A stretch of 64,000 nucleotides of DNA from Patescibacteria group bacterium (GTDB lineage Bacteria; Patescibacteriota; WWE3; UBA101185; UBA10185), in NCBI GenBank assembly GCA_018825365.1, contig JAHJEV010000003.1, positions 174,619 to 238,618 of the forward strand. Direction: 5' to 3'. The notes beneath the pieces were generated by a model. The model worked only from the letters and a program-made list of their open reading frames with translations, did not search any database and was not told the DNA's origin. The position numbers and the translations under genes were made by a program. This document shows, one piece after another, positions 3,405-25,838 of the stretch. The first letter of the stretch is position 1, and every line of letters begins with the position of its first letter.

Positions 3405-4310
3405 TTACATCGATTTCAATCTCTTGATTCTTTCCTCAATCGGCGGGTGGGTATCAAATAGATTTGAGACAGAACTCTTAATTTTGTTTCTTACAGGGTC
3501 GGTGATGTATAAATGGGCCGTAGCACTGTTTGCTACCTCAAGAATTTCTGTATCCTGACTTATTTTTCTCAAAGCATCCGCCAGACCTCTAGGATACCTC
3601 GTAATAAGTGCAGCTGTTGAGTCCGCCAGAAACTCACGCTTTCTGCTTACAGCAAGCTTTATGAGAGTTGCAACAAAGGGGCTTAAAATAAGGAGGACAA
3701 GACCCACCAAAAATAAAATCCCTCCAAGTTCTCCCTCACTACTACTGCTTCTCCTCCGACCTCTGAAAAATAAACCTCTTGTAAACCAGTCTGCTAACAA
3801 AGATATTGTTCCAACAAGAATTGTAACTATACACATAAGTCTCGTATCAAAATTTCCAATATGAGACATCTCATGGGCAACAACACCTTCAAGTTCCCTT
3901 TTATCAAGTCTATGAATTATGCCACTTGTAAAGCAGATAGTTGAATGTTGAGGGTCCCTTCCAGTTGCAAATGCGTTCATCGAAGAATCGTCTATTATGT
4001 ACACCTTAGGCTTTGGGATACCTGATGCAATACACATATTTTCAACAAGGTTGTGGAGATCCGGAGCTTCCTGGGGAGTAACTTCTTTGGCTTTAGAAAC
4101 TGCAAGAACAACCTTATCTGAGCTATAGTACGAAAATAGACCGGAAAATCCAGCAATAATTAAAGCAAAACTTAAAAATGAGATTCCACTTCCGTCATAA
4201 AAGTAGTTTCCAACAAACCATCCAATAAAGCATGTGACCGCAACAAAAAATACCATAATAACAAAAGTGTCCCTCTTATTTGAGCCAATGTTTTGATATA
4301 TGTTTGGCAT
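3405..4310 (-). CDS. htpX: zinc metalloprotease HtpX (M48 family)
   Basis: HEMSHI HExxH motif and N-terminal TM helices. It is adjacent to lemA, a common pairing. Confidence 0.85.
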   Translation of the reverse strand: MPNIYQNIGSNKRDTFVIMVFFVAVTCFIGWFVGNYFYDGSGISFLSFALIIAGFSGLFSYYSSDKVVLAVSKAKEVTPQEAPDLHNLVENMCIASGIPKPKVYIIDDSSMNAFATGRDPQHSTICFTSGIIHRLDKRELEGVVAHEMSHIGNFDTRLMCIVTILVGTISLLADWFTRGLFFRGRRRSSSSEGELGGILFLVGLVLLILSPFVATLIKLAVSRKREFLADSTAALITRYPRGLADALRKISQDTEILEVANSATAHLYITDPVRNKIKSSVSNLFDTHPPIEERIKRLKSM

Positions 4311-6949: not shown

Positions 6950-7047
6950 AGTTTAATTTTATCAAAAATAGCGCCTTGAAGCAGGGGTTTTTCTTTTGTT
7001 GACCAGAAAATCCTTTACTGATAGTATAGGGACTGCATTGTGAATGT

Positions 7048-7125
7048 GGGGTCGTAGCTCAGCTAGGTTAGAGCGCTGCTCTGTCACAGCAGAGGTCACG
7101 GGTTCGAATCCCGCCGGCCCCGCCA
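7048..7125 (+). tRNA. tRNA-Asp (anticodon GTC)
   Basis: Manual cloverleaf: acceptor GGGGTCG/CGGCCCC, D-arm GCTC-AGCTAGGTTA-GAGC, anticodon loop CTGTCAC, T-loop TTCGAAT, encoded CCA. An upstream promoter-like TTGACC-N17-TAGTAT lies at 6999-7027. Confidence 0.85.
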
Positions 7126-7183
7126 CGATAAATTGCCCGTTTCCTAAATGCTCTGTTTTTCCAATTTTGGTTAGGTTAAAAGA

Positions 7184-7230
7184 AAGAACCTCAGCTTTTT
7201 TGGTTTTTAAGCCTAAAAGTTGAGGTTCTT
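7184..7230 (-). terminator. rho-independent terminator hairpin
   Basis: Inverted repeat AAGAACCTCAGCTTTT / AAAAGTTGAGGTTCTT (16 bp, 1 mismatch) with a 15-nt loop. It sits 18 nt after the stop of the 7249..7623 gene and is T-rich downstream on the minus strand. Confidence 0.6.
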
Positions 7231-7248
7231 GATTTCTATGGCAGAAGG

Positions 7249-7623
7249 CTAAGCGAGATTGCAACCGCTGAGCATAATCATGCCACTGCCTGCGAGATCA
7301 TTTGCATCTTTTCCGGTTATACCGAGGGTTGCAGGAGTGATGACGTCCCAAAAGCCCAGCGCTTTGCCGACCGCGAACAGAATGAACGCTGTGCGCTGGC
7401 TTCCAATGACAGCACCTACTTCAATGTACGAGGGTCCTTCTGAAAGAGCGTGAGGTCCTTCGTACCCGGCGAGAAGCTGTTTCAGAGAATCCTTGTTCGC
7501 TTGAGCTTTCGGCGTGTTGACGGCCACCTTAAGATTGTGGATCTGTACAACAGTCGTGTCGGGGGAGTCTTCCTTTTCGCTGAGACAGCCCATCAAAAGA
7601 TCGTGTAACTTCTGAAGATCCAT
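7249..7623 (-). CDS. hypothetical protein; GC-rich (~50% vs ~35% locally), likely horizontally acquired
   Basis: Long ORF with strikingly elevated GC. The second Met (MDLQKLHDLL...) is preceded by GGAGGAA at RBS spacing, so the start is probably 7623 rather than 7635. No recognisable domain. Confidence 0.55.
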   Translation of the reverse strand: MDLQKLHDLLMGCLSEKEDSPDTTVVQIHNLKVAVNTPKAQANKDSLKQLLAGYEGPHALSEGPSYIEVGAVIGSQRTAFILFAVGKALGFWDVITPATLGITGKDANDLAGSGMIMLSGCNLA

Positions 7624-7777
7624 GTGTTCCTCCAATTCGTTGATTTGTAGAGCCTTATTTGGCTTTTATGCTACGCATTTTACCATAGTAATCTACTTAT
7701 GTAAACTACAGGTTAAGCGTGTTTTTACAGCACATTCCTTTCTAAAACAGCACTTTTGTTACTGGACACTGAGCTAA

Positions 7778-7810
7778 AAAAGTTCCAAGTACGTCCCACA
7801 CGCCCCGCCA
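7778..7810 (+). repeat. 33-bp direct repeat, copy 1 (AAAAGTTCCAAGTACGTCCCACACGCCCCGCCA)
   Basis: One of three near-identical copies at 7778, 8400 and 9022, with a 622-bp period. The 3' part GCCCCGCCA equals the tRNA-Asp acceptor/CCA end and the 5' part GTTCCAAGT resembles its T-loop. Confidence 0.9.
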
Positions 7811-7852
7811 GTTAAAAAACCAAACCTTTGGTTACTCTAGCAAGCTCCAAAA

Positions 7853-7860
7853 TGTATAAT
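7853..7860 (+). promoter_or_regulatory. extended -10 promoter element (TGTATAAT) driving a leaderless transcript
   Basis: TGnTATAAT ends 6 nt before the ATG at 7867, so the predicted TSS coincides with the A of the start codon. No Shine-Dalgarno sequence is present. Confidence 0.45.
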
Positions 7861-7866
7861 GTGTTT

Positions 7867-8400
7867 ATGAAAACCATCGATCTATCCCAACCTCTTTATG
7901 ATGGAATGGATGTTTACCCAGGTGATCCCAAGGTACATATAAAACAAATTCACACTTTGGATAAAGAGGGTTGGAGACTTAGATACCTTCAATTCTCAAC
8001 CCACATTGGTACCCATGCAGATGCCCTTGCCCATATGGACAATAAAGGAGCAACGATCGATAAAATACCTATCAGTAAATTTATAGGTAAAACGGTACTG
8101 GTTAAACCCAGTGACACTTTTCCCAAAGAAGTCGGTCTCGCCTTCAGAGATAGCATCTTAGGAGTGGATCTTTTAAAGAAAATCATAGAGGCAAAACCAC
8201 TCTTTGTCGTAGTTGGAGGTAAGAGTGACTTTGAGCTTGAGATGGAGAGAAAGCTTCTTCAGGCTGGAATTATCACAATGGCTGAGTTGGTAAATATGGA
8301 CAAATTACCAAGAAATAAACCTTTTATGTTCTACGGAGTTCCACTAAATATCAAAGACGGAGATGGTTCTCCGATTAGGGCGTTTGCAGTTATAGAGTAA
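7867..8400 (+). CDS. cyclase family protein / kynurenine formamidase-like
   Basis: HxGTHxDxxxH metal-binding motif (STHIGTHADALAHM). N-terminus MKTIDLSQPLYDGMDVYPGDP is typical of the family. The ORF-track start at 7828 is a TTG; the ATG at 7867 is preferred. Confidence 0.75.
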   Translation: MKTIDLSQPLYDGMDVYPGDPKVHIKQIHTLDKEGWRLRYLQFSTHIGTHADALAHMDNKGATIDKIPISKFIGKTVLVKPSDTFPKEVGLAFRDSILGVDLLKKIIEAKPLFVVVGGKSDFELEMERKLLQAGIITMAELVNMDKLPRNKPFMFYGVPLNIKDGDGSPIRAFAVIE

Positions 8401-8432
8401 AAAGTTCCAAGTACGTCCCACACGCCCCACCA
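8400..8432 (+). repeat. 33-bp direct repeat, copy 2
   Basis: AAAAGTTCCAAGTACGTCCCACACGCCCCACCA, with one substitution relative to copies 1 and 3. It lies between the convergent ends of the cyclase and glycosylase genes. Confidence 0.9.
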
Positions 8433-8438
8433 AGAAAG

Positions 8439-8993
8439 CTATAGGAGGTATCTATAAGGATTTTTGTTTCCCTTTAATCTACTGTTTATCCCAACTCTCT
8501 TTGCAGATTTAATAGATGAATGGAGATCCCCCGCATTCTCCAGATATAACTTATCTCCAGTTAGATCCTCACCATATAAACTTAGTGTTATTCCAAATGA
8601 TTTACATAAATTTCCAGGAGATTTTGTTAAATCAGATACTTTTTTAACACCTTTGTCAAAGTTTAACCTCATTATCTCAATACCATCTTTTGGTATAACA
8701 GCTCTTATGAAAACTACATCCGGGATATCTTTTTTGTTAACGACTACAGCAAGTTGGTAATGTAAACCATAAATGAGGTACACATAAGCGTAACCTCCCT
8801 CCTTATACATTATTTCAGTCCTTGGAGTTCTCCTATTTCCATGTGACACATCAATAAAAGCAGGGTACGCTTCGACTTCTGAAATAATTCCACTAACCAA
8901 ACCTTTTTCTGAATTATAAACCAGCTTTTTTCCGAGAAATTCTTTTGCTACATCTAGAGCGGGCTTTAAGTAAAAGCTTTTCTCAATCTTCAT
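8439..8993 (-). CDS. mpg: DNA-3-methyladenine glycosylase (Mpg/AAG family)
   Basis: Family signature SEVEAYPAFIDVSHGNRRTPRTEIMYKEGGYAYVYLIYGLHYQLAVVV, matching ETEAY...D.ASHA..G.T.RN..MF..G..YVY..YG.H.C.NVV. Confidence 0.8.
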   Translation of the reverse strand: MKIEKSFYLKPALDVAKEFLGKKLVYNSEKGLVSGIISEVEAYPAFIDVSHGNRRTPRTEIMYKEGGYAYVYLIYGLHYQLAVVVNKKDIPDVVFIRAVIPKDGIEIMRLNFDKGVKKVSDLTKSPGNLCKSFGITLSLYGEDLTGDKLYLENAGDLHSSIKSAKRVGINSRLKGNKNPYRYLL

Positions 8994-9021
8994 AGCTACA
9001 TTTTATCAAATTCCTGGAAAT

Positions 9022-9054
9022 AAAAGTTCCAAGTACGTCCCACACGCCCCGCCA
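9022..9054 (+). repeat. 33-bp direct repeat, copy 3
   Basis: AAAAGTTCCAAGTACGTCCCACACGCCCCGCCA, exactly 622 bp after copy 2. Confidence 0.9.
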
Positions 9055-9100
9055 GGAATCAATAACTCTATAAACGTAAAAAGTCATGTAAAATAATCGT

Positions 9101-9580
9101 ATGAGCAGTAACAATGACTCAGTATTCAAAAAATTATTTCCTAGAGTTCTTGTATTTATACTTGATTATTTAAGTTACATATCTCTTACCTATATAGTTA
9201 TTTTCTGTTTTGTAACTCTACTTGTTTTAGTTGCAGGTTCGCCTTTCGAAGCCTTCTTCATAAAAGTGTTACTTGTAACTCTACAAAGTAAAGAAACAAG
9301 TGTAACTCTCAATACCGGAGATATTATGAATGCATTTTTTATCTGGTGGTTAATATTAGGTACTTTCTTCAAAATCGTTAAAGAACTACTTGGCGTAAAT
9401 TTTAATAAAATAGTATTACCTCTTGTACTATTTATAACATTGGTAAGCACATTACTTCTGACCACTAATATTGGATCGTCTTTTGTACCAATTTTCTTGT
9501 TTGGTTTGTTTATAGTTAACTTTATTATTTACTATTCGTTATCAAGAATATCTGAGATAACTCGAAATTTTATAAGATAG
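9101..9580 (+). CDS. hypothetical polytopic membrane protein
   Basis: 159 aa and very hydrophobic (4-5 predicted TM helices). No SD sequence. Confidence 0.5.
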   Translation: MSSNNDSVFKKLFPRVLVFILDYLSYISLTYIVIFCFVTLLVLVAGSPFEAFFIKVLLVTLQSKETSVTLNTGDIMNAFFIWWLILGTFFKIVKELLGVNFNKIVLPLVLFITLVSTLLLTTNIGSSFVPIFLFGLFIVNFIIYYSLSRISEITRNFIR

Positions 9581-9698
9581 CATTTCTTAATAAATTTGAT
9601 GTAGGGTAGATTTTAATAATTAGAGTAGAACTCTATGAATTGTAAACTAACCAAATTTTAATTTCCTACGTACACTTTCTATTTGCTATCATTTACCA

Positions 9699-11207
9699 AT
9701 GAGAAAATTTCTCAGCAAACTTCTCCTTTTTCTATTGCTACTTTCCTGCTTTTCAATACTTTTTGTTCGAAAAATAAACTTAGCTACAGCTGACATTGGT
9801 AGACATATAAAAAACGGCGAAGTACTTCTAACTACAGGGAAAATTGTTTCTACAAACTTTTACTCATACACACAACCGGATTTAAAAGTGGTTAACCATC
9901 ACTGGTTAAGTGGTGTAATATTTTTTCTTGTCTATAAAGCATTCGGATTTTCAGGATTATCGTTTTTCTATGCAATCCTATCTGGTCTTGCGGTTTATCT
10001 TCTTTACTTAATTTCTAAAAAACAAGTTGGGGGCGACATTGCTTTTTTTGTCGTGATGCTTCTTCTTCCACTAATGTCGTATCGGGTTGAGGTTCGCCCC
10101 GAAGTCTTTAGTGTTCTTTTTATCTGTATTTACCTTTATCTACTGTTTGGCTACATTCGAAATGAAATTAATTTTAAATATTTGTTACTGTTTATTGCTT
10201 CAACCCAACTTTTTTGGGTTAATCTTCACATATTTTTCATAGTCGGCCCCTTTTTAATAGCTCTTTTCATTTTTGCTTTGTTTATTACCCACAATGTCAA
10301 ACGTGCAAAAAAACTTTTACCTGTGTTATTTCTATCGATTGCAGTTTGTTTTATTAACCCTTTTGGAATAAACGGGGTTTTAGAACCGCTGACAATACTT
10401 AGGACATACGGTTATAGAATCTACGAGAATCAACCACTTTTATTTGTACAGGGCTATAACCCTTCAATGATTTATTACTACGCTGATATCATATTTACTC
10501 TTGGGGTCGTGTATCTGGGGTTATTTATAGGATCTGCAAGAAAAAAACTTTGTACTGAGGATGTTATTGTTTTGACGCTTTTTGTCATTTTTGGTCTTGC
10601 CGCATTTGGGATGGTTCGTATGCTTTCTTTGTTCGGTTTTATTGCCTGTTTATTTTTTGCCTCTGTTTTGGAAAAAATTCCTAACACACTTATGAATGTA
10701 AGTTCTGCGATAAACTACTTATTGCTAGCCTCACTAGTCTCTATAGCTATTATTACCAGAAGTTTGGGATGGGGTCTTTACCCCGGGGTGCAAAATGGTG
10801 CCAGATTTTTTGTTGAGAACAACTTGAAAGGTCCAATTTTTAATAATTACGATATTGGAGGATATTTGATATTTAATTTGTTTCCAAAAGAAAAAGTATT
10901 TGTTGATAACAGGCCCGAGGCTTACTCTGTTTCGTTTCTTAAGGATACTTTAATAAAAATGCAGCAAGATGAAGAGGCCTGGAAGGAACTCTCGCCGAAG
11001 TTTAATTTTAACGTGATTTTTTTCTATCTTAATGACATGACTGATTGGGCGCAGCCCTTTTTACTAAGGCGGCTAGACGATCCGCAGTGGGTCCCGGTAT
11101 ATGGTGACAGTTTTACTCTGGTTTTTGTTAAAAATACACCAGAGAACCAAAGCATTATTCAAAGTTATAAAATTCCAAGAGAATCTTTCCGCCTAACAAA
11201 GCGTTAA
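9699..11207 (+). CDS. large polytopic membrane protein, possibly a GT-C-fold glycosyltransferase (PMT/ArnT-like)
   Basis: 502 aa with ~10 TM helices in the N-terminal two thirds and a soluble C-terminal domain. There is an acidic/His loop after TM1 (ADIGRHIKNGE). The family assignment is inference only. Confidence 0.5.
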   Translation: MRKFLSKLLLFLLLLSCFSILFVRKINLATADIGRHIKNGEVLLTTGKIVSTNFYSYTQPDLKVVNHHWLSGVIFFLVYKAFGFSGLSFFYAILSGLAVYLLYLISKKQVGGDIAFFVVMLLLPLMSYRVEVRPEVFSVLFICIYLYLLFGYIRNEINFKYLLLFIASTQLFWVNLHIFFIVGPFLIALFIFALFITHNVKRAKKLLPVLFLSIAVCFINPFGINGVLEPLTILRTYGYRIYENQPLLFVQGYNPSMIYYYADIIFTLGVVYLGLFIGSARKKLCTEDVIVLTLFVIFGLAAFGMVRMLSLFGFIACLFFASVLEKIPNTLMNVSSAINYLLLASLVSIAIITRSLGWGLYPGVQNGARFFVENNLKGPIFNNYDIGGYLIFNLFPKEKVFVDNRPEAYSVSFLKDTLIKMQQDEEAWKELSPKFNFNVIFFYLNDMTDWAQPFLLRRLDDPQWVPVYGDSFTLVFVKNTPENQSIIQSYKIPRESFRLTKR

Positions 11208-11260
11208 ATGGTAAAACCTGGCGTCAGCAATCTAATGATGGCCTCAAAAATAATACTCTT

Positions 11261-12697
11261 ATGTATAATGCATTTGTTATGAAACTTTTTTTAAAAAGAA
11301 AAAAAGATACAATCTCGTCTCTTACAAAAACAAGGCCACGTAAATTATCAAAACCTTTAAAACTAGCCGGAAAAATTCTAATTCTCGTTTTTATAGCACT
11401 TTCTATTTTGGCAGCGGGCATATACATTGGGCAAAAGAATCAAAAATATTCTTTGCATGCTCTTCTTCCAAAAATCAGTTTTAAAGCCACACCGCAAAAA
11501 GATACGGATGCGCAGTTTTTCTCCGAAATTTACAATTTAATAAAAAATGACTACTGGGACAAGGACATGGACGACACGGCTCTCTCAAACCTTTACCTGC
11601 TTGCTATACAAAAACTCACATCCAAAGCCCAGGTTATTACATCTCAAGACGAACAAGGTATAGAAAAACTCATTAAAGAAGCAACAAAAACTATGGATCC
11701 GAAGCACAAAATCGCTTTTATAGCACAAGTATCTGACGTGGTTTTGCAAAATCTTCAGCCGTTTGGAAGAAGCAGATTGTATGGAGAAAAAATGATTACA
11801 GATATACAAAATGAGGTTAAAAATGCCAACCCGGGAAAAAATTTATACGATAATCTGAAAGTAAGTAATTCATCTCCCCAACAAGAAATAGCTATAGCGT
11901 ATAAAAGTAGGATGAACGAGCTTCAATCTCAAAAGCAAACCCCCGAAGTTTCGCAGAAAATGCAAGAAGTTCAAAGAGCGTATGACACTATTGGTGACAT
12001 CGAAGCCAGAAAAACATATGATGTATCCGGAGTTGAAAGCACAATTAGTTATAAACTTATAAGCCCAAGAATTTTTTACATGCATTTTACAAGATTTTCA
12101 CCCACAAGCCTGGAGGATATTAACAGATCAGCTGAAAAGGTAAACCAAGGGGACGAGCTGGATACTTTAATATTTGACTTGCGGGATAATATTGGCGGAT
12201 TGGTAGACGGCCTACCATATTTTTTAGGACCTTTTATCGGGCCTGACCAATATGCATATCAACTGTTTTCCAGAGGAGAAACTACAGATTTTAAAACCAA
12301 ATTAGGATGGCTTCCCTCACTTGTTAGATACAAAAAAGTCATTGTCCTGATAAACGGAGGGGGTCAATCCTCTACAGAAGTATTTGCGGCAACTCTCAAA
12401 AAGTACAACGTGGGAATTTTGGTTGGAACAAAGACTAAAGGATGGGGAACAATTGAAAAAATTGAAACTTTAAAAACCCAGCCAAACCCACAAGAAAAAT
12501 ATTCGGTTTTACTTGTACAGCAGCTAACTCTAAGGGAAGACGGACAGCCAATAGAAGGGCTTGGGGTAGAACCTAATATCAATATTGCAAACGAGGGGTG
12601 GGAAAACGAACTTTTTAGGCGGTTTAATAGCCAGGAGATAGTAAACACTGTAAAAGAGCTCCTGAAACCAGATATAGCGGCTTTGCCGAAAAAGTAA
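11261..12697 (+). CDS. S41 family C-terminal processing peptidase-like protein with N-terminal TM anchor and an internal degenerate J-like segment
   Basis: Ser/Lys dyad region LINGGGQSSTEVFAATLKKYNVGILVGTKTKGWGT resembles the CtpA motif (SASASE...TFGKG). Residues ~200-250 align with J-domain helices II-IV but lack the HPD motif. Confidence 0.65.
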   Translation: MYNAFVMKLFLKRKKDTISSLTKTRPRKLSKPLKLAGKILILVFIALSILAAGIYIGQKNQKYSLHALLPKISFKATPQKDTDAQFFSEIYNLIKNDYWDKDMDDTALSNLYLLAIQKLTSKAQVITSQDEQGIEKLIKEATKTMDPKHKIAFIAQVSDVVLQNLQPFGRSRLYGEKMITDIQNEVKNANPGKNLYDNLKVSNSSPQQEIAIAYKSRMNELQSQKQTPEVSQKMQEVQRAYDTIGDIEARKTYDVSGVESTISYKLISPRIFYMHFTRFSPTSLEDINRSAEKVNQGDELDTLIFDLRDNIGGLVDGLPYFLGPFIGPDQYAYQLFSRGETTDFKTKLGWLPSLVRYKKVIVLINGGGQSSTEVFAATLKKYNVGILVGTKTKGWGTIEKIETLKTQPNPQEKYSVLLVQQLTLREDGQPIEGLGVEPNINIANEGWENELFRRFNSQEIVNTVKELLKPDIAALPKK

Positions 12698-12803
12698 GGG
12701 TAGTGTCGCGTAATTTATAAATCACCATACATAGCTACTTCGTTCTTCAAAATACTAATTTTGATAGAATATTCATATTGCCAATTTTAAACTTTGTTTT
12801 AAA

Positions 12804-13061
12804 ATGGTTCTGATGAGTAAAATTCTTCCTAATAGCTGGTATATTACAAAAAAAGAGTTCAACACTGAAATAAAAGATATAAAGGGTACCCTTAGCACTC
12901 TTAAGGTTTCAACAATGAATATAGAAGCGAAAATTAACATATATTCAGATATGTACGAAATGAACAAGTGGAATTTAAATAAGCTAGCAAACAGGGTTAA
13001 TAAACTGGAAAAACAAAGTGGGGTAATACCTCCTCAGGAGCTTCTTATATCAGGTCTTTAA
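12804..13061 (+). CDS. hypothetical small coiled-coil protein
   Basis: 85 aa, lysine/asparagine rich with a heptad-like pattern. No SD sequence. An overlapping minus-strand 64-aa ORF is considered less likely. Confidence 0.35.
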   Translation: MVLMSKILPNSWYITKKEFNTEIKDIKGTLSTLKVSTMNIEAKINIYSDMYEMNKWNLNKLANRVNKLEKQSGVIPPQELLISGL

Positions 13062-13189
13062 GCAAACTTTATATAAATCCCTAATCCAAATTGCTTTAAC
13101 CTAAATCTTTCTTGTGGTAACTTAAAAATATTCCTGCCCCACGAATTTATATTTATTAAATCAAAGGGGGTGTAACCAACTAACCAAAC

Positions 13190-13642
13190 ATGGTAGATAC
13201 TAAGAAAAATCCGAAAGATGGATTGGGACTGGTAGTGGGCGGACTTTTTATCCTTGCCTTGGTTTTTGCAACCTACAACTATTTCAATAAGAAACAACCC
13301 GGCACAGAAAATCAGAAGGGACAGGAGACGTTATTCCAGAAGCAAACAGGGAGTATTAATGGAGAGGGAGCTACAGATAAAAAGCAAGTACAAGCCTTGG
13401 GAACTGGCGGCCCAATAACAACCGGCCAGAAGTGGGTAGCAACCGACTATCAAAAAGGGGATATAAAAGGACCAACCCATACCGTAAAATCCGGAGACAC
13501 ACTTTGGGAAATAGCAGAAGCTGTATATGGAACCGGGACTATGTGGACAAAAATACTTGAGGCTAATAAATCCTCAATTGGATTTTTACCAAACGGATCA
13601 CAAGCTTTAATTGTCCCAGGACAAGTTCTAATACTGCCTTAG
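13190..13642 (+). CDS. LysM domain membrane-anchored protein
   Basis: N-terminal TM helix. C-terminal LysM (HTVKSGDTLWEIAEAVYGTGTMWTKILEANK...LIVPGQVLILP). Confidence 0.8.
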   Translation: MVDTKKNPKDGLGLVVGGLFILALVFATYNYFNKKQPGTENQKGQETLFQKQTGSINGEGATDKKQVQALGTGGPITTGQKWVATDYQKGDIKGPTHTVKSGDTLWEIAEAVYGTGTMWTKILEANKSSIGFLPNGSQALIVPGQVLILP

Positions 13643-13694
13643 AAGGTTTTTTACATTTTAGATGAGTTGAAGCTGTTTTGAATAACAGTATGTT

Positions 13695-13724
13695 TTGGGT
13701 GTGCTTTTTCTTTTAAGGTATAAT
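13695..13724 (+). promoter_or_regulatory. sigma70-like promoter for tRNA-Gly (TTGGGT-N18-TATAAT)
   Basis: The -10 TATAAT at 13719-13724 lies 10 nt upstream of the tRNA 5' end. Confidence 0.5.
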
Positions 13725-13734
13725 TTACTAAATT

Positions 13735-13809
13735 GCGGGCGTGGCTTAGTGGTAAAGCGTCTCCTTCCCAAGGAGAAGATCGCGGGTTCAAATCCCGTCG
13801 CCCGCTCCA
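13735..13809 (+). tRNA. tRNA-Gly (anticodon CCC)
   Basis: Acceptor GCGGGCG/CGCCCGC, anticodon stem-loop TCTCC-TTCCCAA-GGAGA, T-loop TTCAAAT, encoded CCA. Confidence 0.85.
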
Positions 13810-13859
13810 GAAGTTCAAAGTTCCGATAGACCCGAGTGCCCTTTCCTTAAATATCATAA
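13804..13859 (+). repeat. att-like direct repeat R1 (overlaps tRNA-Gly 3' end): GCTCCAGAAGTTCAAAGTTCCGATAGACCCGAGTGCCCTTTCCTTAAATATCATAA
   Basis: Shares GCTCCA-GAAGTTCAAAGTTCCGA...CCCTTTCCTT.AATA..ATAA with R4 at 17608-17658. Confidence 0.85.
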
Positions 13860-13893
13860 TAATTTCGTTCTTATTTCGTATCCTAGATAATTG

Positions 13894-13938
13894 TTTCCAG
13901 ACCCGTCGGACCCTAGGTGAAGTTCAAAGTTCCGACCA
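13894..13938 (+). repeat. att-like direct repeat R2: TTTCCAGACCCGTCGGACCCTAGGTGAAGTTCAAAGTTCCGACCAC
   Basis: Shares TTTCCAGAC-N-GAAGTTCAAAGTTCCGAC with R3/R4. Lies immediately upstream of the P-type ATPase gene. Confidence 0.8.
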
Positions 13939-14010
13939 CTTCAAGAAATTGCCGATGCTTGATACAAATCAAATATATGTTTTACCAACAACAATGTTAA
14001 AATAATAGCA

Positions 14011-16659
14011 ATGCCCCAAGGACTTACATTTACCGAAGCCCGGCAGAGGCTAATTGAATACGGGTTTAATGAAATAGTAGAAGTATCAAAATCTACCCCA
14101 TTTAAAATCTTATTGCGACAAATAAAAAGCAATTTTGTTATTTATATGCTCTCAATAGCAGTAGTTATTTCTTTTTCTGTGGGAAAACCAATAACAGCTT
14201 ACACAATCCTCATTGTTATATTTATTGTCATTTTTGTAGGATTTTTTCAAGAATACAAAGCAGAAGAATCTATTAACAGTTTAAAGAAAATGCTGATGCC
14301 TATTTCTATAGCGTATAGAGATGGAAAGAAAAAGGAAATACCCTCCAGAGATATTGTGCCAGAAGATATTATTCTTTTGGGAAATGGAGAAAAAATTCCT
14401 GCTGATTGTGAGCTATTAGAGTCCTTTGACCTGAGAGTAAACGAGAGTGCTTTGACAGGTGAGTCTAAAGAAATTGCAAAAATAGCAAAGAGTAACAACG
14501 AACAACAAATTACGGATCAAAACAGAATCTTCATGGGTACATATATAGTTAATGGAAGATGCCTTGCAAAAGTAACTCATACAGGCATGAATACTAACTT
14601 TGGTAAGATCGCGCACTTAATATCTACTGCCGAAAAAGAATTACCATTACAAAACAAGGTTAACACTATCGCGAAGTATATGGTAACTATTGCCATAGTT
14701 GCATCAATATCTACTGGGGCTCTGCTTGCCTTTAGGGCCCCTGTCATTAATACCGCTGTTTTAGTAGACATTTTAATATTAATGATTGCACTATCTGTTT
14801 CTGCATTTCCCGAAGGATTTCCAATAGTTTTAGCAACCACCTTAGCTTTAGGTGCAAAACGTATGTCTGAAAAGAAAGCTATAGTCAATAGAATGTCCAT
14901 TATCGAAACGCTGGGTGAAGTAACAGCAATATGTTCAGATAAAACAGGCACAATAACCAGAGGGGAAATGACAGTAAAATTTATATTTACTGGTAATGAA
15001 CTTTACGAGGTACAGGGAAGCGGTTATGTAGCTCATGGAAAAATAACTAAAGAGGGTATCGAGGTTGATATAAACAAGCAACAGGATATAAAACAAATGC
15101 TATTAGCCTCTATATTATGTAATAACTCCGAAATAGAACGAACTGGAGAAAATAATGATTATAGAGCAATTGGCTCTCCGACAGAAACGGCACTATTAAT
15201 ACTAGGTGCCAAGGTCGGTATTTTTAAGGATAACTTTTTATATGACCGCGTAAATGAATACCCCTTTAATTCCGAGCGTAAAATGATGTCCGTTCTATTC
15301 GTGCAAGATGGGAGGTATTACGTTTATGCCAAAGGTGCTCCTGAGGTACTTCTTGAGAAATGTTCCAAAGCCTATAATAACGGCAATGAGAAAGTCCTTA
15401 CAAACAAAGAAAAGGAGCGTATATATTCTTTACAGCAAGAAATGTCCAGTACGGCTTACAGAACACTGGTAACATGCTATAAGGAAATTGATGCCGGGAA
15501 TAAGAGTTACGAAGAAGAAAACTTCACCTTTCTGGGTTTGATAGCTATGGAAGATCCCCCAAGAGAAGAAGTCGCAGAGGCAATAAAAACAGCAAAAAGT
15601 GCGGGTATAAAGGTTTACATGGTTACAGGAGACAGCAAAGAAACAGCACTTTCCATAGCTAAACAAATTGGTCTTAGTGTTGACACTAAAACGTTAGACG
15701 GTAATACAATGGATCAGCTTTCAGACGCAGAATTAGCAATAGAAGTTAAAGAAACCACAGTTTTTGCAAGAGTAAAACCAGAACATAAAATTCGTTTAGT
15801 GAAGATTTTCAAAGCTTTAGGGGAAATTGTTGCCATGACAGGGGATGGTGTTAATGATGCTCCCGCACTAAAAGAAGCCCATGTAGGCATTGCTATGGGC
15901 AAAAACGGAACTGATGTTTCCCGTTCTGTTGCGGACCTTATATTAAGGGACGATAATTTTGCAACTATTGTTTCTGCAATAGCAGAAGGCAGAACTGTTT
16001 ATAACAATATTAGGAAGTTTGTAACTTACCAACTTAGCTGTAACTTAGCAGAACTAATTACTTTATTTTTGGGGGTTTTGTTAGCACCCACGCTTGGATG
16101 GCAGACACCACTTCTTGTATCTATACAAATACTGTTTATGAATTTAGTAACCGATAACTTACCTGCTCTAACACTAGGGGTCAATCCAACTTCAAAAGAT
16201 ATTATGGAGGATAAGCCCAGAAATAATGGGGATATATTAAATAGCGAGTTATTAAAACTACTGTTGGGTACAGCATTTTTTATGGCTTTTACAACACTTC
16301 TTGCATATTTCATCTCCTTTAACGTTTTGGGATTAACTCTTGAAGTCAGTAGAACCGTGGCTTTACTAACATTAATATTAGTTGAAATAGCATCGGCCTT
16401 CAGCTTTAGATCTTTTAGGAAAATGACACTTACGCGATCACCCTTTGTTAATAAATATTTAGTAACTGCTTCTATTTTGTCGATTTGCTTTACTTTAGTA
16501 ATTATTTATACGCCGTTTAATAAAATCTTGGAAACAACTCCACTAAACATCACGGGCTGGATCATTGCATTAGTATGTAGCAGTTTAATTCTAATTCTTA
16601 ATGACGTAATAAAGACAATGAACTTGAGAAATCCTAACTATATATCCAGTACTAAATAA
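14011..16659 (+). CDS. P-type cation-transporting ATPase (P2-type, Ca2+/Mg2+-like)
   Basis: Phosphorylation motif CSDKTGTIT, TGDS and GDGVNDAPAL motifs, ~10 TM helices, 882 aa. Confidence 0.9.
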   Translation: MPQGLTFTEARQRLIEYGFNEIVEVSKSTPFKILLRQIKSNFVIYMLSIAVVISFSVGKPITAYTILIVIFIVIFVGFFQEYKAEESINSLKKMLMPISIAYRDGKKKEIPSRDIVPEDIILLGNGEKIPADCELLESFDLRVNESALTGESKEIAKIAKSNNEQQITDQNRIFMGTYIVNGRCLAKVTHTGMNTNFGKIAHLISTAEKELPLQNKVNTIAKYMVTIAIVASISTGALLAFRAPVINTAVLVDILILMIALSVSAFPEGFPIVLATTLALGAKRMSEKKAIVNRMSIIETLGEVTAICSDKTGTITRGEMTVKFIFTGNELYEVQGSGYVAHGKITKEGIEVDINKQQDIKQMLLASILCNNSEIERTGENNDYRAIGSPTETALLILGAKVGIFKDNFLYDRVNEYPFNSERKMMSVLFVQDGRYYVYAKGAPEVLLEKCSKAYNNGNEKVLTNKEKERIYSLQQEMSSTAYRTLVTCYKEIDAGNKSYEEENFTFLGLIAMEDPPREEVAEAIKTAKSAGIKVYMVTGDSKETALSIAKQIGLSVDTKTLDGNTMDQLSDAELAIEVKETTVFARVKPEHKIRLVKIFKALGEIVAMTGDGVNDAPALKEAHVGIAMGKNGTDVSRSVADLILRDDNFATIVSAIAEGRTVYNNIRKFVTYQLSCNLAELITLFLGVLLAPTLGWQTPLLVSIQILFMNLVTDNLPALTLGVNPTSKDIMEDKPRNNGDILNSELLKLLLGTAFFMAFTTLLAYFISFNVLGLTLEVSRTVALLTLILVEIASAFSFRSFRKMTLTRSPFVNKYLVTASILSICFTLVIIYTPFNKILETTPLNITGWIIALVCSSLILILNDVIKTMNLRNPNYISSTK

Positions 16660-16789
16660 AGTCTTTTAGGTCCATAAAGCAAACCAGGTTTCGCATTATA
16701 TACGTACATAAGATGCTACGAGACAACTACCCTTAGCACTGCCTCATTTGTCTCATTTCTAGCCTGGAGAGTATAACCTGCTTGTGGGG

Positions 16790-16834
16790 TTTCCAGACAC
16801 GGCCAGTGCTCCAGAAGTTCAAAGTCTCGGTTAC
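16790..16834 (+). repeat. att-like direct repeat R3: TTTCCAGACACGGCCAGTGCTCCAGAAGTTCAAAGTCTCGGTTAC
   Basis: Contains the tRNA-Gly 3' end GTGCTCCA plus the GAAGTTCAAAGT core. Lies between the ATPase and the GC-rich ORF. Confidence 0.85.
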
Positions 16835-16852
16835 TTACGCTATACTTATAGA

Positions 16853-17584
16853 ATGATAGGCGACGTTGCCAATAAACTAGATCTTCCAGATATATCAGAG
16901 ACGGATGAAAAATTAACTCCTCCGGAAGTTGTGGATGTTGCCAGGCAAACTGAAAATTTGTTCTTACAGTCTGGGTTACCAAATGAACCTCGCACACGTG
17001 GACAATGCTGTGGTGTCGGGGCTGAAATAGAAAACCATCTCTTTCATTTTCATAATAAAGACATCAGAAGAGACATCGGTGATGGCGGGGAATCATTTGT
17101 AGTGATGCTTTGGCAAATACATGCGGCCTCTAGAAACATAGATCAAGATGCACTACAACAGAACTTGCTAAATACAGGTATGAGACCCGAGACACAGCTA
17201 GGTGTTTTTCACCACACACTTTGTGTATACAAGAAAGATGGGCGGGCATACGTTTTAGATAGAGCTTTCTGTCAATTTGTTAATCCAAAAGATCTTTCAT
17301 TGGATGATGGTCTAGCGGAAGGGGGACCTAACGATTATGCATCTGGTTCTTCGGCCAACACAACTCCTATAAATCAGTTGCTGGAACTAGGTTATTTTGA
17401 ACTTACAGAAAAAACCGCTAGAGACTTTTTAGTTGCAACTTGTGATAAAAACCTCCAACACCAAATACCTGAGAAGATAGATGTAACCGACTTATTAGCA
17501 AGAGTGGTACCAGAGATGCCTGATCTCACTAAGGAAGAACTTGATGATATCTGCTTCTTAGGTAAAAGGTTAACGGGTCAGTAA
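16853..17584 (+). CDS. hypothetical protein with Cys...His...Asp spacing reminiscent of papain-fold/transglutaminase-like hydrolases; moderately GC-rich (~44%)
   Basis: The ORF-track start at 16784 translates repeat R3; the in-frame ATG at 16853 is the more plausible start, though it has no clear SD. Candidate triad: GQCCGVGA (Cys), FHHTLCVY (His) ~65 aa later, YVLDRAF (Asp) ~16 aa after His. This mirrors the spacing in the transglutaminase-like protein at 45429. Confidence 0.5.
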   Translation: MIGDVANKLDLPDISETDEKLTPPEVVDVARQTENLFLQSGLPNEPRTRGQCCGVGAEIENHLFHFHNKDIRRDIGDGGESFVVMLWQIHAASRNIDQDALQQNLLNTGMRPETQLGVFHHTLCVYKKDGRAYVLDRAFCQFVNPKDLSLDDGLAEGGPNDYASGSSANTTPINQLLELGYFELTEKTARDFLVATCDKNLQHQIPEKIDVTDLLARVVPEMPDLTKEELDDICFLGKRLTGQ

Positions 17585-17585
17585 A

Positions 17586-17658
17586 TTTCCAGACTTGGGA
17601 GGTGCTCCAGAAGTTCAAAGTTCCGACGGACTTATCGCCCTTTCCTTGAATACTATAA
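17586..17658 (+). repeat. att-like direct repeat R4 (full-length): TTTCCAGACTTGGGAGGTGCTCCAGAAGTTCAAAGTTCCGACGGACTTATCGCCCTTTCCTTGAATACTATAA
   Basis: Combines the left half shared with R2/R3 and the right half shared with R1, and includes the tRNA-Gly 3'-end octamer GTGCTCCA. Confidence 0.85.
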
Positions 17659-17711
17659 CTTTTCCATGTTTTCCTCACACAACACGGATCTTGGTTTCAA
17701 ACATAATTTAG

Positions 17712-19025
17712 ATGATATACTTCCCCTTGAAATTATTTTTATCTATGAAGCCTTTTGTCTACACCAGCAAGTCTAAAAAGAGACTCATTACAGCACTTGT
17801 CTTGATTGATTCTGTACTAGTTGCTTTGTGTTTTGTTTTTTATACAAAGACACAAAACAATGATGCCGGCTTAACAGGATCCGTACTGGCAGCGGTGGAT
17901 ATTTCAATGAGTGCTGTTGAAACTATCTCAGCCTCAAGCGAACCCGCAACATCAACAACAATTAAGTCAACTTCAACGCCCACTCCCAGCCCCATACCCC
18001 AGCCTGTACAAACTCCCATTGTGTTAGGAGTTTCCGATGCCACTGGTGAAGTTTTCTTTGGCCGTGGAACACCAAACAATAAAATCGGAATGTATGTACA
18101 TAACAATGCCGATGATATTAAAGCTGCCGCAAAATTAATCAACAGCAATGGAGGTGATTGGGGTTACATACTTTTAACAATTGATATAAATGACCGAAAC
18201 AAATCCAGTTGGAAGGATTTGTTTAATGCAGCATCTAGTAGTCATTTAATTCCCATTGTGCAGATTTTTAATAATAATAACTGCAACCCCGACAAGCTTG
18301 ATTTTAAAGGATTAGCAAGTACATTAAACAGCGTAAAGTGGCCAAATAAGCATCGGTACATAAGTGTTTTTAATGAGATGAATTCTAAGGATTATTGGTG
18401 CGAAAAAATAGCACCTGATGAATACGCGAAGGCATTAAATAACGCTATCAAAGCCTTTAAAGACAAAAGCAGCGATTTTTTTATTATGCCGGGCGCTTTT
18501 AACAGCAGTGCGAGAACTCAAGACAGATACATGAGTGAAGAAACCTATCTAGTTAAGATGAACGAAGCTGTACCAGGGATTTTCAAAAAAATAGATGGGT
18601 GGGCAACACATTCCTATCCCCAGCCAAACTTTAGCGGAGATATTAATAACTTACCCGGAGGTTACGGAACACGCGATACTATTAATAATTACGAGTGGGA
18701 AATGCAAATACTTAGAAATTATTTTGGTGTTGGCTCTTTGCCTATATTTATTACAGAAACAGGATGGTTACATAGGGAAGGCCAAAGTGGTTGTGTGCAA
18801 TATTCACAAAGTAACTTATTATCTGCGGATGTTGTTTCCAGCAGATATAAAATCGCCTATCTTAATTACTGGCTAAAAAATCCTCAGATAGTAGCTATTA
18901 CCCCTTTTATATTCAGAAGTAAAGATCCGTGTGCGGAGGGGTTTGCATGGCAAAAAAAAGATGGCGGCTGGTATCCCCAGGCAAACATGCTTTTGAATAT
19001 TGCCAAAACAGCAGGTACTCCCTAG
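17712..19025 (+). CDS. membrane-anchored clan GH-A (GH5-like) glycoside hydrolase, paralog A
   Basis: N-terminal TM helix plus a Ser/Thr/Pro linker. Candidate acid/base is VFNEMN and candidate nucleophile is FITETGW, ~130 aa apart as in GH5 TIM barrels. It is a paralog of 22810..24018. Confidence 0.6.
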   Translation: MIYFPLKLFLSMKPFVYTSKSKKRLITALVLIDSVLVALCFVFYTKTQNNDAGLTGSVLAAVDISMSAVETISASSEPATSTTIKSTSTPTPSPIPQPVQTPIVLGVSDATGEVFFGRGTPNNKIGMYVHNNADDIKAAAKLINSNGGDWGYILLTIDINDRNKSSWKDLFNAASSSHLIPIVQIFNNNNCNPDKLDFKGLASTLNSVKWPNKHRYISVFNEMNSKDYWCEKIAPDEYAKALNNAIKAFKDKSSDFFIMPGAFNSSARTQDRYMSEETYLVKMNEAVPGIFKKIDGWATHSYPQPNFSGDINNLPGGYGTRDTINNYEWEMQILRNYFGVGSLPIFITETGWLHREGQSGCVQYSQSNLLSADVVSSRYKIAYLNYWLKNPQIVAITPFIFRSKDPCAEGFAWQKKDGGWYPQANMLLNIAKTAGTP

Positions 19026-19138
19026 GTAGTACTTTTACACATATCCTGCTATTCACTAAAAAATTGATGCATCTAAACTTTTCCAAGAATAATAACTATA
19101 TTTTGTTATAATCTAATACGCTAATCACTTTGTTTATT

Positions 19139-24082: not shown

Positions 24083-25306
24083 GTGAAACCAGAGGTGAAA
24101 CTTACACTATTTATATTTTTAATCAGTATAGTACTTGGATGTGCTGTGGTTATATCAAGAGCGAAAAATACATCTGGAAACATTTTATCTCCCTTTGCAA
24201 AAGGATCCTCATTGTTTTCACTTTTCGGAAGACATGAAAAACCAAAGAAAATAATTTACGGGTACTTCCCTTATTGGAATTTTGAAAAAATTAAATACCT
24301 AAGGCTTGATGAACTGACACATCTTGCCTACTTTGGGATTTACTTGGAAGAGAACGGTAATTTTGAAAAAACAGCCATTGGAGAAGACGGGAGTATTGTC
24401 TTTGAACCCGGATACAAAAACTGGAAAGAAAGTAAAGAACTTGGAAGCCTAATTGAAAAATGTAAACAGGAAGGAGTGAGGGTTGCTTTAACCGTTATTG
24501 CACACACGGATGAAAAAATAGACAATTTCTTAGATTGTAAGGAGTGTTGGAATACCTTGCTAAATAACTTGGTAATGGAGTTAAACGTAAGGGGGATAAA
24601 AGACGTAAATCTTAATTTTGAGTATGCGGGAGAAACCGATCCTAAAAGAGCTGTAGAATTTTCAGAACTTACAAAATTTGTTAATGAGCAACTTGATTCA
24701 ATCTATGGCGATTCTTTTGTCGTTGCATCAGCCTTTGCTGATTCCGCGCAGGCGCAAAGAGTAAGTTCAGATCTTGATAATTTGGGAAGAAACGCGGATG
24801 GAATTTTTATCATGGGGTATGATTTTCACAGACCCCAGTCAGATGAAATAGGTCCGGTGGCTCCAATATCCGGAAACAAGCAAAATATTACATCTATTCT
24901 TAATGATTTTCTTACAAAGGTTCCGCCAAATAAAATAATTTTAGGAGTTCCGTATTATGGCTATAACTGGGTGGTAAAAAGTGATGATCCAAATGCCAAA
25001 ACACTCAAGGACGCAGATGACAACCCACGTGCTCAATCCCAACCATACGAAAGCGTTATGGATACGATACTTGATACAGATCCGGAAGTTAAGTGGAACG
25101 AGGAAGGAAAATCCCCATATTTCACGTACACCAGCCCCGAAACAGGAGAGCTAAGAACGGTTTACTTTGAAAATAAAGATTCTTTGAGAGCAAAATATCA
25201 GCTTGTTAAAGACGCAAATCTTGCGGGGGTTGGTATATGGGCACTGGGGTACGATGGTGGGTACAACGAACTTTGGGATCTTTTATACGACGAGTTTATC
25301 CGATAA
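24083..25306 (+). CDS. glycoside hydrolase family 18-like protein (chitinase-like fold)
   Basis: GH18 blocks YGYFPYWNF, IMGYDFH and GVPYYGYNW. The catalytic-motif region reads DVNLNFEY, i.e. DxNxNxE instead of DxDxDxE. Confidence 0.6.
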   Translation: MKPEVKLTLFIFLISIVLGCAVVISRAKNTSGNILSPFAKGSSLFSLFGRHEKPKKIIYGYFPYWNFEKIKYLRLDELTHLAYFGIYLEENGNFEKTAIGEDGSIVFEPGYKNWKESKELGSLIEKCKQEGVRVALTVIAHTDEKIDNFLDCKECWNTLLNNLVMELNVRGIKDVNLNFEYAGETDPKRAVEFSELTKFVNEQLDSIYGDSFVVASAFADSAQAQRVSSDLDNLGRNADGIFIMGYDFHRPQSDEIGPVAPISGNKQNITSILNDFLTKVPPNKIILGVPYYGYNWVVKSDDPNAKTLKDADDNPRAQSQPYESVMDTILDTDPEVKWNEEGKSPYFTYTSPETGELRTVYFENKDSLRAKYQLVKDANLAGVGIWALGYDGGYNELWDLLYDEFIR

Positions 25307-25762: not shown

Positions 25763-25838
25763 TGGTGGGTCCATCTGGGATCGAACCAGAGGCCTTTCGG
25801 ATGTGACCCGAGCGCTCTACCAACTGAGCTATGGACCC
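25763..25838 (-). tRNA. tRNA-Val (anticodon CAC)
   Basis: Reverse complement gives GGGTCCATAGCTCAGTTGGTAGAGCGCTCGGGTCACATCCGAAAGGCCTCTGGTTCGATCCCAGATGGACCCACCA, with a canonical D- and T-arm, anticodon loop GTCACAT and encoded CCA. Confidence 0.8.

Follow-up and report, generated by a model that had tools for sequence, protein, structure and literature searches.

In the attachment (att) sites of large serine recombinases (LSRs), for example those of Listeria A118/LI, Bxb1 and phiC31, a 9-bp zinc-ribbon-domain (ZD) motif lies at positions 16-24 of attP half-sites and at positions 11-19 of attB, 5 bp nearer the centre (Rutherford et al. 2013, PMC3783163). Elements of the staphylococcal cassette chromosome (SCC), whose LSRs are CcrAB/CcrC, insert at the 3' end of rlmH/orfX without inactivating this housekeeping gene, and their composite islands consist of tandem elements split by short direct repeats, with recombinase-less 'pseudo-SCC' beside recombinase-bearing units (PMC3026799, 10.1101/336396). 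Prochlorococcus tycheposons integrate repeatedly at one tRNA in streamlined genomes, newer elements pushing older ones outward, and show partial-tRNA repeats and recombinase-less remnants; most use a dedicated tyrosine recombinase lineage, and a minority carry LSRs (10.1101/2020.12.28.424599). In integrons (IntI, attI, attC), small and mostly single-gene cassettes with diverse accessory roles and one site each are inserted next to the platform. Here we describe two arrays of short repeats that follow a tRNA-Asp and a tRNA-Gly gene in a 64-kb stretch of DNA, hereafter called the window, from a Patescibacteria group bacterium of the WWE3 lineage (assembly GCA_018825365.1, contig JAHJEV010000003.1, positions 174,619 to 238,618). 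We lean towards the explanation that the repeats are recombination-site scars at the borders of small gene cassettes, and that these cassettes entered in succession at the 3' ends of the two tRNA genes, with an LSR as the presumed enzyme. That the recombination was site-specific and directed to tRNA ends is very likely, and sequence comparison makes an LSR the best candidate enzyme.

The window has a GC content of ~38% and carries four tRNA genes (Asp, Gly, Thr and Val; ARAGORN, Rfam). It was compared with fetched metagenome loci of relatives, which are referred to by L-numbers (L002, L017-L054). The array behind tRNA-Asp contains the following features:

7048-7125, plus strand: tRNA-Asp(GTC) with encoded CCA (ARAGORN, Rfam)
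7126-7774, no strand assigned: tRNA-proximal cassette with a 124-aa hypothetical ORF (7249-7623, minus strand), 45% GC
7775-7810, plus strand: family 1 repeat (REP) copy 1, TAAAAAAGTTCCAAGTACGTCCCACACGCCCCGCCA (repeat search, profile)
7811-8397, plus strand: cyclase (PF04199) cassette, gene at 7867-8400 (Pfam)
8398-8432, plus strand: REP copy 2, a discriminator variant ending ...CCCCACCA (repeat search, profile)
8433-9019, minus strand: methylpurine-DNA glycosylase (PF02245) cassette, gene at 8439-8996, minus strand (Pfam)
9020-9054, plus strand: REP copy 3, the last in the Asp array (repeat search, profile)
9055-9650, plus strand: variable segment with a 159-aa hypothetical ORF (9101-9580), not in L030

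The three copies of the family 1 repeat, called REP below, were located at 7778, 8400 and 9022 (full starts 7775, 8398 and 9020), are 33-36 nt long, have the sequence (T)AAAAAAGTTCCAAGTACGTCCCACACGCCCCGCCA and are identical at 32-33 of 33 positions. Each is composed of an A-rich leader, which contains the T-loop-like AAGTTCCAA, then the 5-nt spacer GTACG, and lastly a tail that nearly copies tRNA positions 60-76. The leader motif corresponds to GGGTTCGAA of tRNA-Asp, the GTACG being extra in the REP, and the last 17 nt of the REP, TCCCACACGCCCCGCCA, match the last 17 nt of the tRNA, TCCCGCCGGCCCCGCCA, at 14 positions, of which the final 9 are contiguous. The repeat terminates precisely at CCA. 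A REP is found at the distal end of every cassette, in the orientation of the tRNA whatever the direction of the cargo gene. [quoted passage not shown] Both intervals between the copies measure 622 nt exactly, even though the cyclase cassette is unrelated to the glycosylase cassette; the same two cassettes measure 626 nt in L034 and 625 nt in L030, other cassettes range from 377 to 1005 nt, and the equal spacing is probably a coincidence.

Which cassettes are present varies from one close relative to another, REPs are the points where these differences are cut, and the same cassettes occur in arrays behind other tRNAs. Window positions 7776-8432 (REP, cyclase, REP) are 84% identical over 661 nt to L034, where the tails are of the Ser type and the neighbours different, and positions 8399-9055 (REP, glycosylase, REP) are 84.5% identical over 660 nt to L030, the glycosylase cassette being present in L033 too. 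Such homology between genomes starts at the first base after CCA and stops at the REPs. L030 has tRNA-Asp and a downstream 502-aa gene (94% identity) in common with the window, lacks the cyclase cassette, and carries another cassette next to the tRNA. At this polX/tRNA-Asp locus the window, L030, L026 and L021 each differ in tRNA-proximal content: the 7126-7774 cassette is absent from all three relatives, which have other genes there; its 124-aa ORF has no Pfam or NCBIfam match, and its GC content, 45% against ~38% for the window, is consistent with a recent foreign origin. The glycosylase cassette common to the window and L030 is distal in the array, and insertion next to the tRNA predicts this order of varied proximal content and a distal glycosylase cassette. 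The original prediction, which was made from the letters of the window, had ascribed both arrays to a single site-specific recombinase or a tRNA-end-directed mechanism; the comparison supports it insofar as the repeats of both sets are junction repeats of DNA inserted at tRNA 3' ends. Cyclase homologues of 78-88% identity follow tRNA-Ser(GGA) in WWE3, where a degenerate REP lies at the stop codon; those of Microgenomates follow tRNA-Val and have other REP-like ends, and those of Woesebacteria have no visible REP. Many of the contigs with cyclase homologues are only 1-3 kb long, and the k=31 assembly of a Logan contig (L002, 1-33) ends inside REP1; REPs of at least 31 nt probably fragment short-read assemblies at such variable loci.

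Exact matches to the 20-mer AAGTTCCAAGTACGTCCCAC were found in 20 metagenome loci, and in each of the 20 the next 11 nt vary and read as the 3' strand of an acceptor stem, a discriminator and CCA, the leader being invariant across the loci. Wherever the upstream sequence suffices, a same-strand tRNA lies 290-1300 nt upstream of the REP, and the REP tail resembles this nearest tRNA, be it Asp, Ser(GCT/GGA/CGA/ACT) or Gln. In 15 such pairs, tail and tRNA have an identity of 0.73-1.0 over their last 8 nt and a low one at positions 9-13; the L023 tail equals its tRNA over 17 nt. One 275-kb contig holds family 1 at three loci (L024, L026, L039), of which two follow tRNA-Asp and tRNA-Gln. A profile search revealed second or third, more diverged REP copies in eight loci, and arrays of 2-3 REPs are therefore the rule. 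L035 carries another leader, ...AAGCTCCAAGTGTG, joined to TCCTGTACTCTCCGCCA, which matches the T-stem of tRNA-Ser in that genome. Cassettes contain one gene, rarely two or three, in either orientation, and the cargo includes GT87, a YbaK-like editing domain, GH130, MazG, NUDIX, ASCH, a C39-like peptidase, EamA, CN-hydrolase and LigT; the glycosylase, GH130, YbaK-like and L028 genes run antisense to the REP. A scan of viral contigs gave 0 matches for the family 1 20-mer and, for a family 2 17-mer, 13 matches, all in unrelated coding sequence. A second class of att-like repeat was observed in L019 (~3551-3593 and ~545) and L054 (2625-2645), where the leader GAGTGTCTTAAGACAGGTGGC or GATGTGTGAC is joined to an exact 21-nt copy of the local tRNA from T-loop to CCA, without a 5-nt insertion; these tRNAs probably also serve a second integration system of the classical kind.

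The spacing within the repeat points to LSRs. From GTTC to the 3' end there are 29 nt in the REP and 24 nt in the tRNA, a displacement of +5 in 15 of 15 family 1 pairs, and the distance from GTT to the terminal identity block likewise exceeds that in the cognate tRNA by exactly 5 nt in L045, L046, L047, L048, L043 and L040. Family 1 thus has a ZD-type motif 5 bp farther out in the presumed attP, as LSR att sites do. When the T-loop motif is put at positions 11-19 in the tRNA and 16-24 in the REP, the crossover falls 5-6 nt before the tRNA 3' end, within the 9-nt identity block GCCCCGCCA; we infer this centre, and the topology that results from it, from the alignment. A crossover at the T-loop, with its centre in GTTC and the acceptor end as ZD motif, fits the numbers 11-19 and 16-24 too, and was rejected for its topology because the 5-nt insertion would stay in the tRNA and a clean 3' end would appear at the distal junction, the opposite of what is observed.

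Recombinase genes of the LSR type were found in relatives. L040 contains a truncated LSR gene and rolling-circle Rep genes upstream of its REP, and 105 homologues of this LSR were retrieved at E≤1e-20, many of them named Paceibacterota, Parcubacteria or Beckwithbacteria. The loci of eight homologues were looked up, and seven of these homologues stop at, or reach into, the 3' end of a tRNA gene convergent with them, namely Gln (L041, L043), Asp (L045, L048/L049, L051/L052) or Trp (L046, L047). The LSR gene of L045 overlaps the orthologue of the tRNA-Asp in question, in the order tRNA-Asp, then RRM, polX, LemA, M48 and GatCAB. Co-oriented REP-like sites occupy the far ends of the LSR elements, for example AAAATAAGTTCGAACTTTGTCCAC...CAGCA in L043 and three copies of TAAATAGGTTCGAACATCCTCTACTAGTCCCCGCAAAA in L045, with similar sites in L046, L047 and L048. 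In L045, L046 and L040, the LSR element adjoins the tRNA and is followed by cassettes that lack an LSR and have the same type of REP. The type of REP leader follows LSR relatedness: P0002 (L043/L044), second-closest to the L040 LSR overall and the closest with both element ends in the fetched DNA, has the most family 1-like REP, whereas more distant LSRs have REPs of the GGTTCNAACATCCTC type. The original prediction had suggested a search of related bins for a co-varying recombinase, and in relatives there is a recombinase family that co-varies with the repeat leader.

Several further observations were made at these loci. In L043, L045 and L046 the LSR ORF runs 10-31 nt into the tRNA gene, and in L047 and L041 it ends 27 and ~196 nt short of it. 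GCTTTTTTCAGGTTCGAG(C), which includes the T-loop-like GGTTCGA, lies in the 3' coding ends of the LSR genes of L043, L045, L046 and L047, ~60 nt from the tRNA 3' end; L041 has only the related CAGGTTCTAAC in its place. Positions 2670-4255 of L045 comprise two LSR-less cassettes, each with a 102-aa ORF, with identical sequence upstream of the REPs and a terminator-like hairpin downstream, and represent a tandem duplication of a cassette inside an array. In L040, two rolling-circle Reps (Phage_CRI/G2P-like; HUH motif AIHYHM) at 1251-2375 and 6955-7890 stand beside two truncated LSR genes, a combination that resembles an integrative rolling-circle plasmid or inovirus-like elements within a Patescibacteria array.

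The mechanism that we propose would use an enzyme of the LSR family which, in related Patescibacteria, directly adjoins tRNA 3' ends. The T-arm, the 3' strand of the acceptor stem and CCA of the tRNA would together act as the left half-site of an attB type, and the REP would be a left half-site of an attP type, with the same distal motif 5 bp farther out. The strands would be exchanged ~5-6 nt before the tRNA 3' end, inside the identity block shared by tRNA and REP. A crossover near CCA leaves the tRNA intact and a REP at the far end of the insert, as is observed. New inserts would enter beside the tRNA and push older ones outward, and the cassettes of the window, which have no recombinase of their own, may have been mobilised in trans or may be stranded.

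A number of findings weigh against this proposal. Neither an LSR nor any other recombinase is encoded in the 64-kb window, and none was found in L021-L039, that is, in 19 of the 20 family 1 loci. The family 1 REP of L040 ends an LSR-less LigT cassette and not the LSR element itself, and no LSR is therefore seen paired directly with a family 1 REP. A conserved right half-site was not found, since conservation is at most 0.3 bit per position over the 45 nt after CCA at 26 junctions, and the cassettes therefore show no canonical attP of two half-sites; a palindromic GTTCGAAC was seen in L046 alone, at roughly +10 to +17. Serial insertion would require recombination of attP with attL, and canonical LSRs are not known to recombine these two. 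The cases of +5 spacing may not be fully independent, as REP types may share ancestry, and the repeats of the Gly island described below depart from +5: the values for the relic in the family 2 block and for the element REP-G are +3, +10 or +1.

The second island lies between tRNA-Gly and tRNA-Thr and contains the second repeat family, GAAGTTCAAAGTTCCGAY, at 13810, 13919, 16814 and 17610, together with another element, REP-G:

13735-13809, plus strand: tRNA-Gly(CCC) with encoded CCA, at which the second island is inserted (ARAGORN, Rfam)
13810-13938, plus strand: conserved block after tRNA-Gly, holding family 2 copies 1 and 2 (homology to L017 and L019)
13810-13827, plus strand: family 2 copy 1 (repeat search)
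13894-13918, plus strand: degenerate REP-G tail inside the conserved block (comparison)
13919-13936, plus strand: family 2 copy 2 (repeat search)
14011-16659, plus strand: P-type cation ATPase, cargo of Gly-island cassette A (Pfam)
16737-16813, plus strand: REP-G, ~77 nt, ...TGTCTCATTTCTAGCCTGGAGAGTATA...GGGGTTTCCAGAC...GTGCTCCA, ending at CCA (repeat/homology search)
16814-16831, plus strand: family 2 copy 3 (GAAGTTCAAAGTCTCGGT), directly after the CCA of REP-G (repeat search)
16853-17584, plus strand: 243-aa hypothetical ORF, cargo of Gly-island cassette B (no NCBIfam match)
17586-17661, plus strand: short REP-G tail TTTCCAGACTTGGGAGGTGCTCCA, family 2 copy 4 (17610-17627) and flank GCCCTTTCCTTGAATACTATAA (repeat search)
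17712-19025, plus strand: 437-aa hypothetical ORF between the last repeat and tRNA-Thr, within 5.3 kb that are not in L024
19139-19213, plus strand: tRNA-Thr(CGT), right-hand boundary of the insertion seen in comparison with L024 (ARAGORN)

In L024, tRNA-Gly and tRNA-Thr are 7 nt apart between syntenic flanks, and window positions 13810-19138 (5.3 kb) are therefore extra. Flank GCCCTTTCCTTGAATACTATAA repeats positions 13838-13859, so that 17586-17661 forms the right-hand att-like repeat of the island. A 144-nt block (13795-13938) with family 2 copies 1 and 2 follows tRNA-Gly or a junction repeat in L017 and L019 at 85-86% identity. In these relatives the family 2 motif is followed by AGACCCGTCGCCCTACCGA, a decayed tRNA-Gly tail, and because of this the block at 13810-13938 reads as a relic REP with a T-loop-like leader and a decayed tail. 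Copies 3 and 4 follow REP-G (...TTTCTAGCCTGGAGAGTATAC...GGGGTTTCCAGACNNGNNNGGTGCTCCA), which is ~75-85 nt long, ends GGTGCTCCA, always at CCA with varying sequence after it, and is multi-copy and 80-87% conserved in loci of WWE3, Saccharibacteria and other Patescibacteria (L017, L018, L019, L020). It has a long leader and two alternative upstream parts, TGTCTCATTTGTCTCATT... or ATGCAAGCTGTGCTT.... Family 2 is, as these alignments read, a composite of a junction repeat and the start of the tRNA-Gly flank; its core would be part of a relic of the same kind as family 1, and the Gly island would use REP-G. A pseudo-tRNA considered at 16730-16816 was rejected: its GCACTG/CAGTGC acceptor pairing is lost in homologues, no Rfam match was obtained at E≤10, and its fold has a z of -0.6. 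Five unannotated ORFs of the window, four of them island cargo, and one ORF of L040 gave no NCBIfam matches.

The two remaining tRNA genes of the window have no comparable array. The core motif was not found downstream of tRNA-Thr or of the following gene:

25763-25838, minus strand: tRNA-Val (ARAGORN, Rfam)

The sequence TATAAAAGATCCCAAAGTTCGTTGTACCCACCA, 508 nt downstream of tRNA-Val (25255-25296, minus strand), has a tRNA-Val-like tail, and the gene order around it is kept in L024. As a candidate third array it was rejected: its spacing is -7, and it overlaps the coding end of a GH18 gene.

The link between the two families originally rested on a shared core. All seven repeat copies were confirmed, and AAGTTCMAAGT has 8 exact matches in the window against 0.27 expected, a number that 0 of 100 shuffles reach. 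Seven of the eight are the repeat copies, three of family 1 and four of family 2; the eighth, at 41075-41085, lies in a coding sequence, has neither a tRNA-like tail nor an A-rich leader, and looks like a chance match. The statistical weight of the core is less than these figures imply because the seven copies represent only two independent families, and the fair comparison is between consensus sequences: the best 11-mer match is 10/11, with P ~0.01-0.02 if the families are unrelated. The 3' halves of the four tRNAs in the window match each other at 8-10/11, and common tRNA descent alone could therefore explain 10/11. The claimed mimicry of a T-loop holds insofar as both repeat sets carry T-loop-like motifs; aligned without gaps, however, the cores match real T-arms at only 6-7/11, the common part being GTTCNAA. 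Nor do the two cores lie in the same place: that of family 1 precedes the tRNA-like tail and that of family 2 follows CCA within the 144-nt block. A better alignment is obtained on AAAGTTCC, with AAAGTTCC-AAGTACGT-CCCAC-ACGCCCC-G-CCA for family 1 and AAAGTTCC-GATAGA-CCCGT-CGCCCTA-C-CGA for the relic.

These results bear on an explanation that we consider possible, if less probable than the one proposed, in which the families are unrelated: each would go back to its own tRNA, to the T-arm and the 3' end, the shared core would reflect the universal GTTCRAA and A/T bias, and no common recombinase would be involved. The likeness of the tRNA 3' halves, the opposite placement of the two cores, and the location of the family 2 core inside a native 144-nt flank are all expected under this explanation; so are the failure of the family 1 profile to detect family 2 and the departure of REP-G and the relic from the +5 rule. 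The families occur together only in the window among the fetched loci, and in one relative with family 1 at three or more tRNAs, tRNA-Gly directly precedes tRNA-Thr. On the other hand, the cores are closer to each other (10/11) than either is to a real T-arm, the derived AA before GTTC and GT after AA are common to both families, and alignment on AAAGTTCC gives both the same succession of leader, spacer, T-stem 3' strand and acceptor strand. Related LSRs, moreover, use several different tRNAs. Of the original claim that one recombination system serves both sites, what stands is that an LSR family in relatives targets several tRNAs and co-varies with the leader; service of both families by it was not shown.

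Classical tyrosine integrases of phage, integrative and conjugative elements or tycheposon-like elements, with the repeats as decayed, displaced tRNA 3' ends, are an unlikely source of the arrays. Insertion of the tyrosine-integrase type, as Williams is said to have set out in 2002, is the commonest known at tRNA genes, and the exact 21-nt repeats of L019 and L054 look as att sites with an identity block would. However, all loci have one invariant family 1 leader, and this leader is not tRNA sequence; in the window, the REPs, three in number, are near-identical to one another yet deviate from the tRNA at 3 of 17 positions, which argues against independent decay; the exact +5 spacing has no explanation in that model; and in place of an exact tRNA 3' copy with an integrase, the window shows a 14/17 match with 9 contiguous nt and a 5-nt insertion. 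XerD had no match at E<3 in the window or ~24 loci, and Phage_integrase was not among the best 25 of 121 Pfam families over 149 ORFs, which is weak evidence; phmmer searches with XerD and Hin found nothing, yet the same search missed the L040 LSR. A role of the REP at the RNA level, whether in termination, in processing or as the tRNA-like 3' end of a cassette mRNA, is very improbable. REPs often begin at the stop codon of a co-oriented ORF or no more than a few nt from it, and they end in CCA, as a signal of this kind might. No stable fold was found for the REP with its flanks (z = -0.01, +1.6 and +1.1), there was no Rfam or ARAGORN match beyond the four real tRNAs, and neither a T-arm/acceptor minihelix nor a score in tRNA models was obtained, the acceptor-like strand having no 5' partner strand. 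REPs also follow the orientation of the tRNA and not that of the cargo, and an RNA signal would leave the presence and absence of cassettes cut at REPs unexplained.

Of the systems mentioned at the outset, LSR att sites are near to the repeats in geometry and share with them the displaced distal motif in both partners, a short identity block at the predicted crossover, half-sites of ~20 and ~25 bp and, in relatives, a recombinase gene at the element end beside the target. In contrast, the target here is a tRNA 3' end, whereas serine integrases usually use protein-coding genes, and tandem arrays of single-gene cassettes without recombinase or visible conserved right half-site are foreign to those sites. 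The insertion at a 3' end that spares the gene and the tandem units with and without recombinase recall SCC; SCC units, however, are 3-60 kb long with many genes, compared with 0.3-1.3 kb and one gene here, where several tRNAs are targeted in another phylum. Tycheposons resemble the arrays in genome type, repeated integration at one tRNA and recombinase-less remnants, and their layout, with an integrase at the end, a tRNA flank and a partial-tRNA repeat, is present in L040, L043 and L045-L048, the window having only repeats and cargo; they differ in their mostly tyrosine recombinases and plain partial-tRNA repeats, as opposed to the non-tRNA leader, 5-nt spacer and single-gene cassettes of the REP arrays. 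The likeness to integrons is one of array appearance only: no IntI-type tyrosine recombinase was detected beside the array in the window or in the ~24 loci searched, the REP has no attC hairpin symmetry or attC-like foldable inverted repeats (z = -0.01 and +1.6), each cassette has one REP and cargo in either orientation, the platform is a tRNA, and the candidate enzyme is a serine recombinase. It is nevertheless conceivable, though we hold it tentatively, that Patescibacteria possess an integron-like cassette platform run by LSRs, which would dock at almost any tRNA 3' end, in which a portable, one-sided REP of 36 nt would suffice for mobility, and from which a recombinase encoded elsewhere would excise single-gene cassettes and re-insert them between tRNA arrays and lineages.

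We found no description in the literature of such repeats or of LSR-linked tRNA cassette arrays in the candidate phyla radiation (CPR), and a large survey of LSRs mentions tRNA 0 times (PMC10083194). The genomes of Patescibacteria (CPR) are tiny, and the ways in which accessory genes enter them and are swapped are poorly understood. AAGTTCCAAGTACGTCCCAC with its tRNA-matched tail provides a widespread, sequence-defined marker of tRNA-linked cassette arrays, whose cargo consists mostly of small enzyme and transporter genes, many of them related to nucleotides or DNA (glycosylase, MazG, NUDIX, LigT), and the data point to a specific enzyme family, the LSRs. If the T-arm is indeed attB and the REP a +5-shifted attP, these compact att sites could be of use in genome engineering, one integrase family would have been retargeted to many tRNAs through a change of ~10 nt, and cassettes would be mobile without a linked recombinase.

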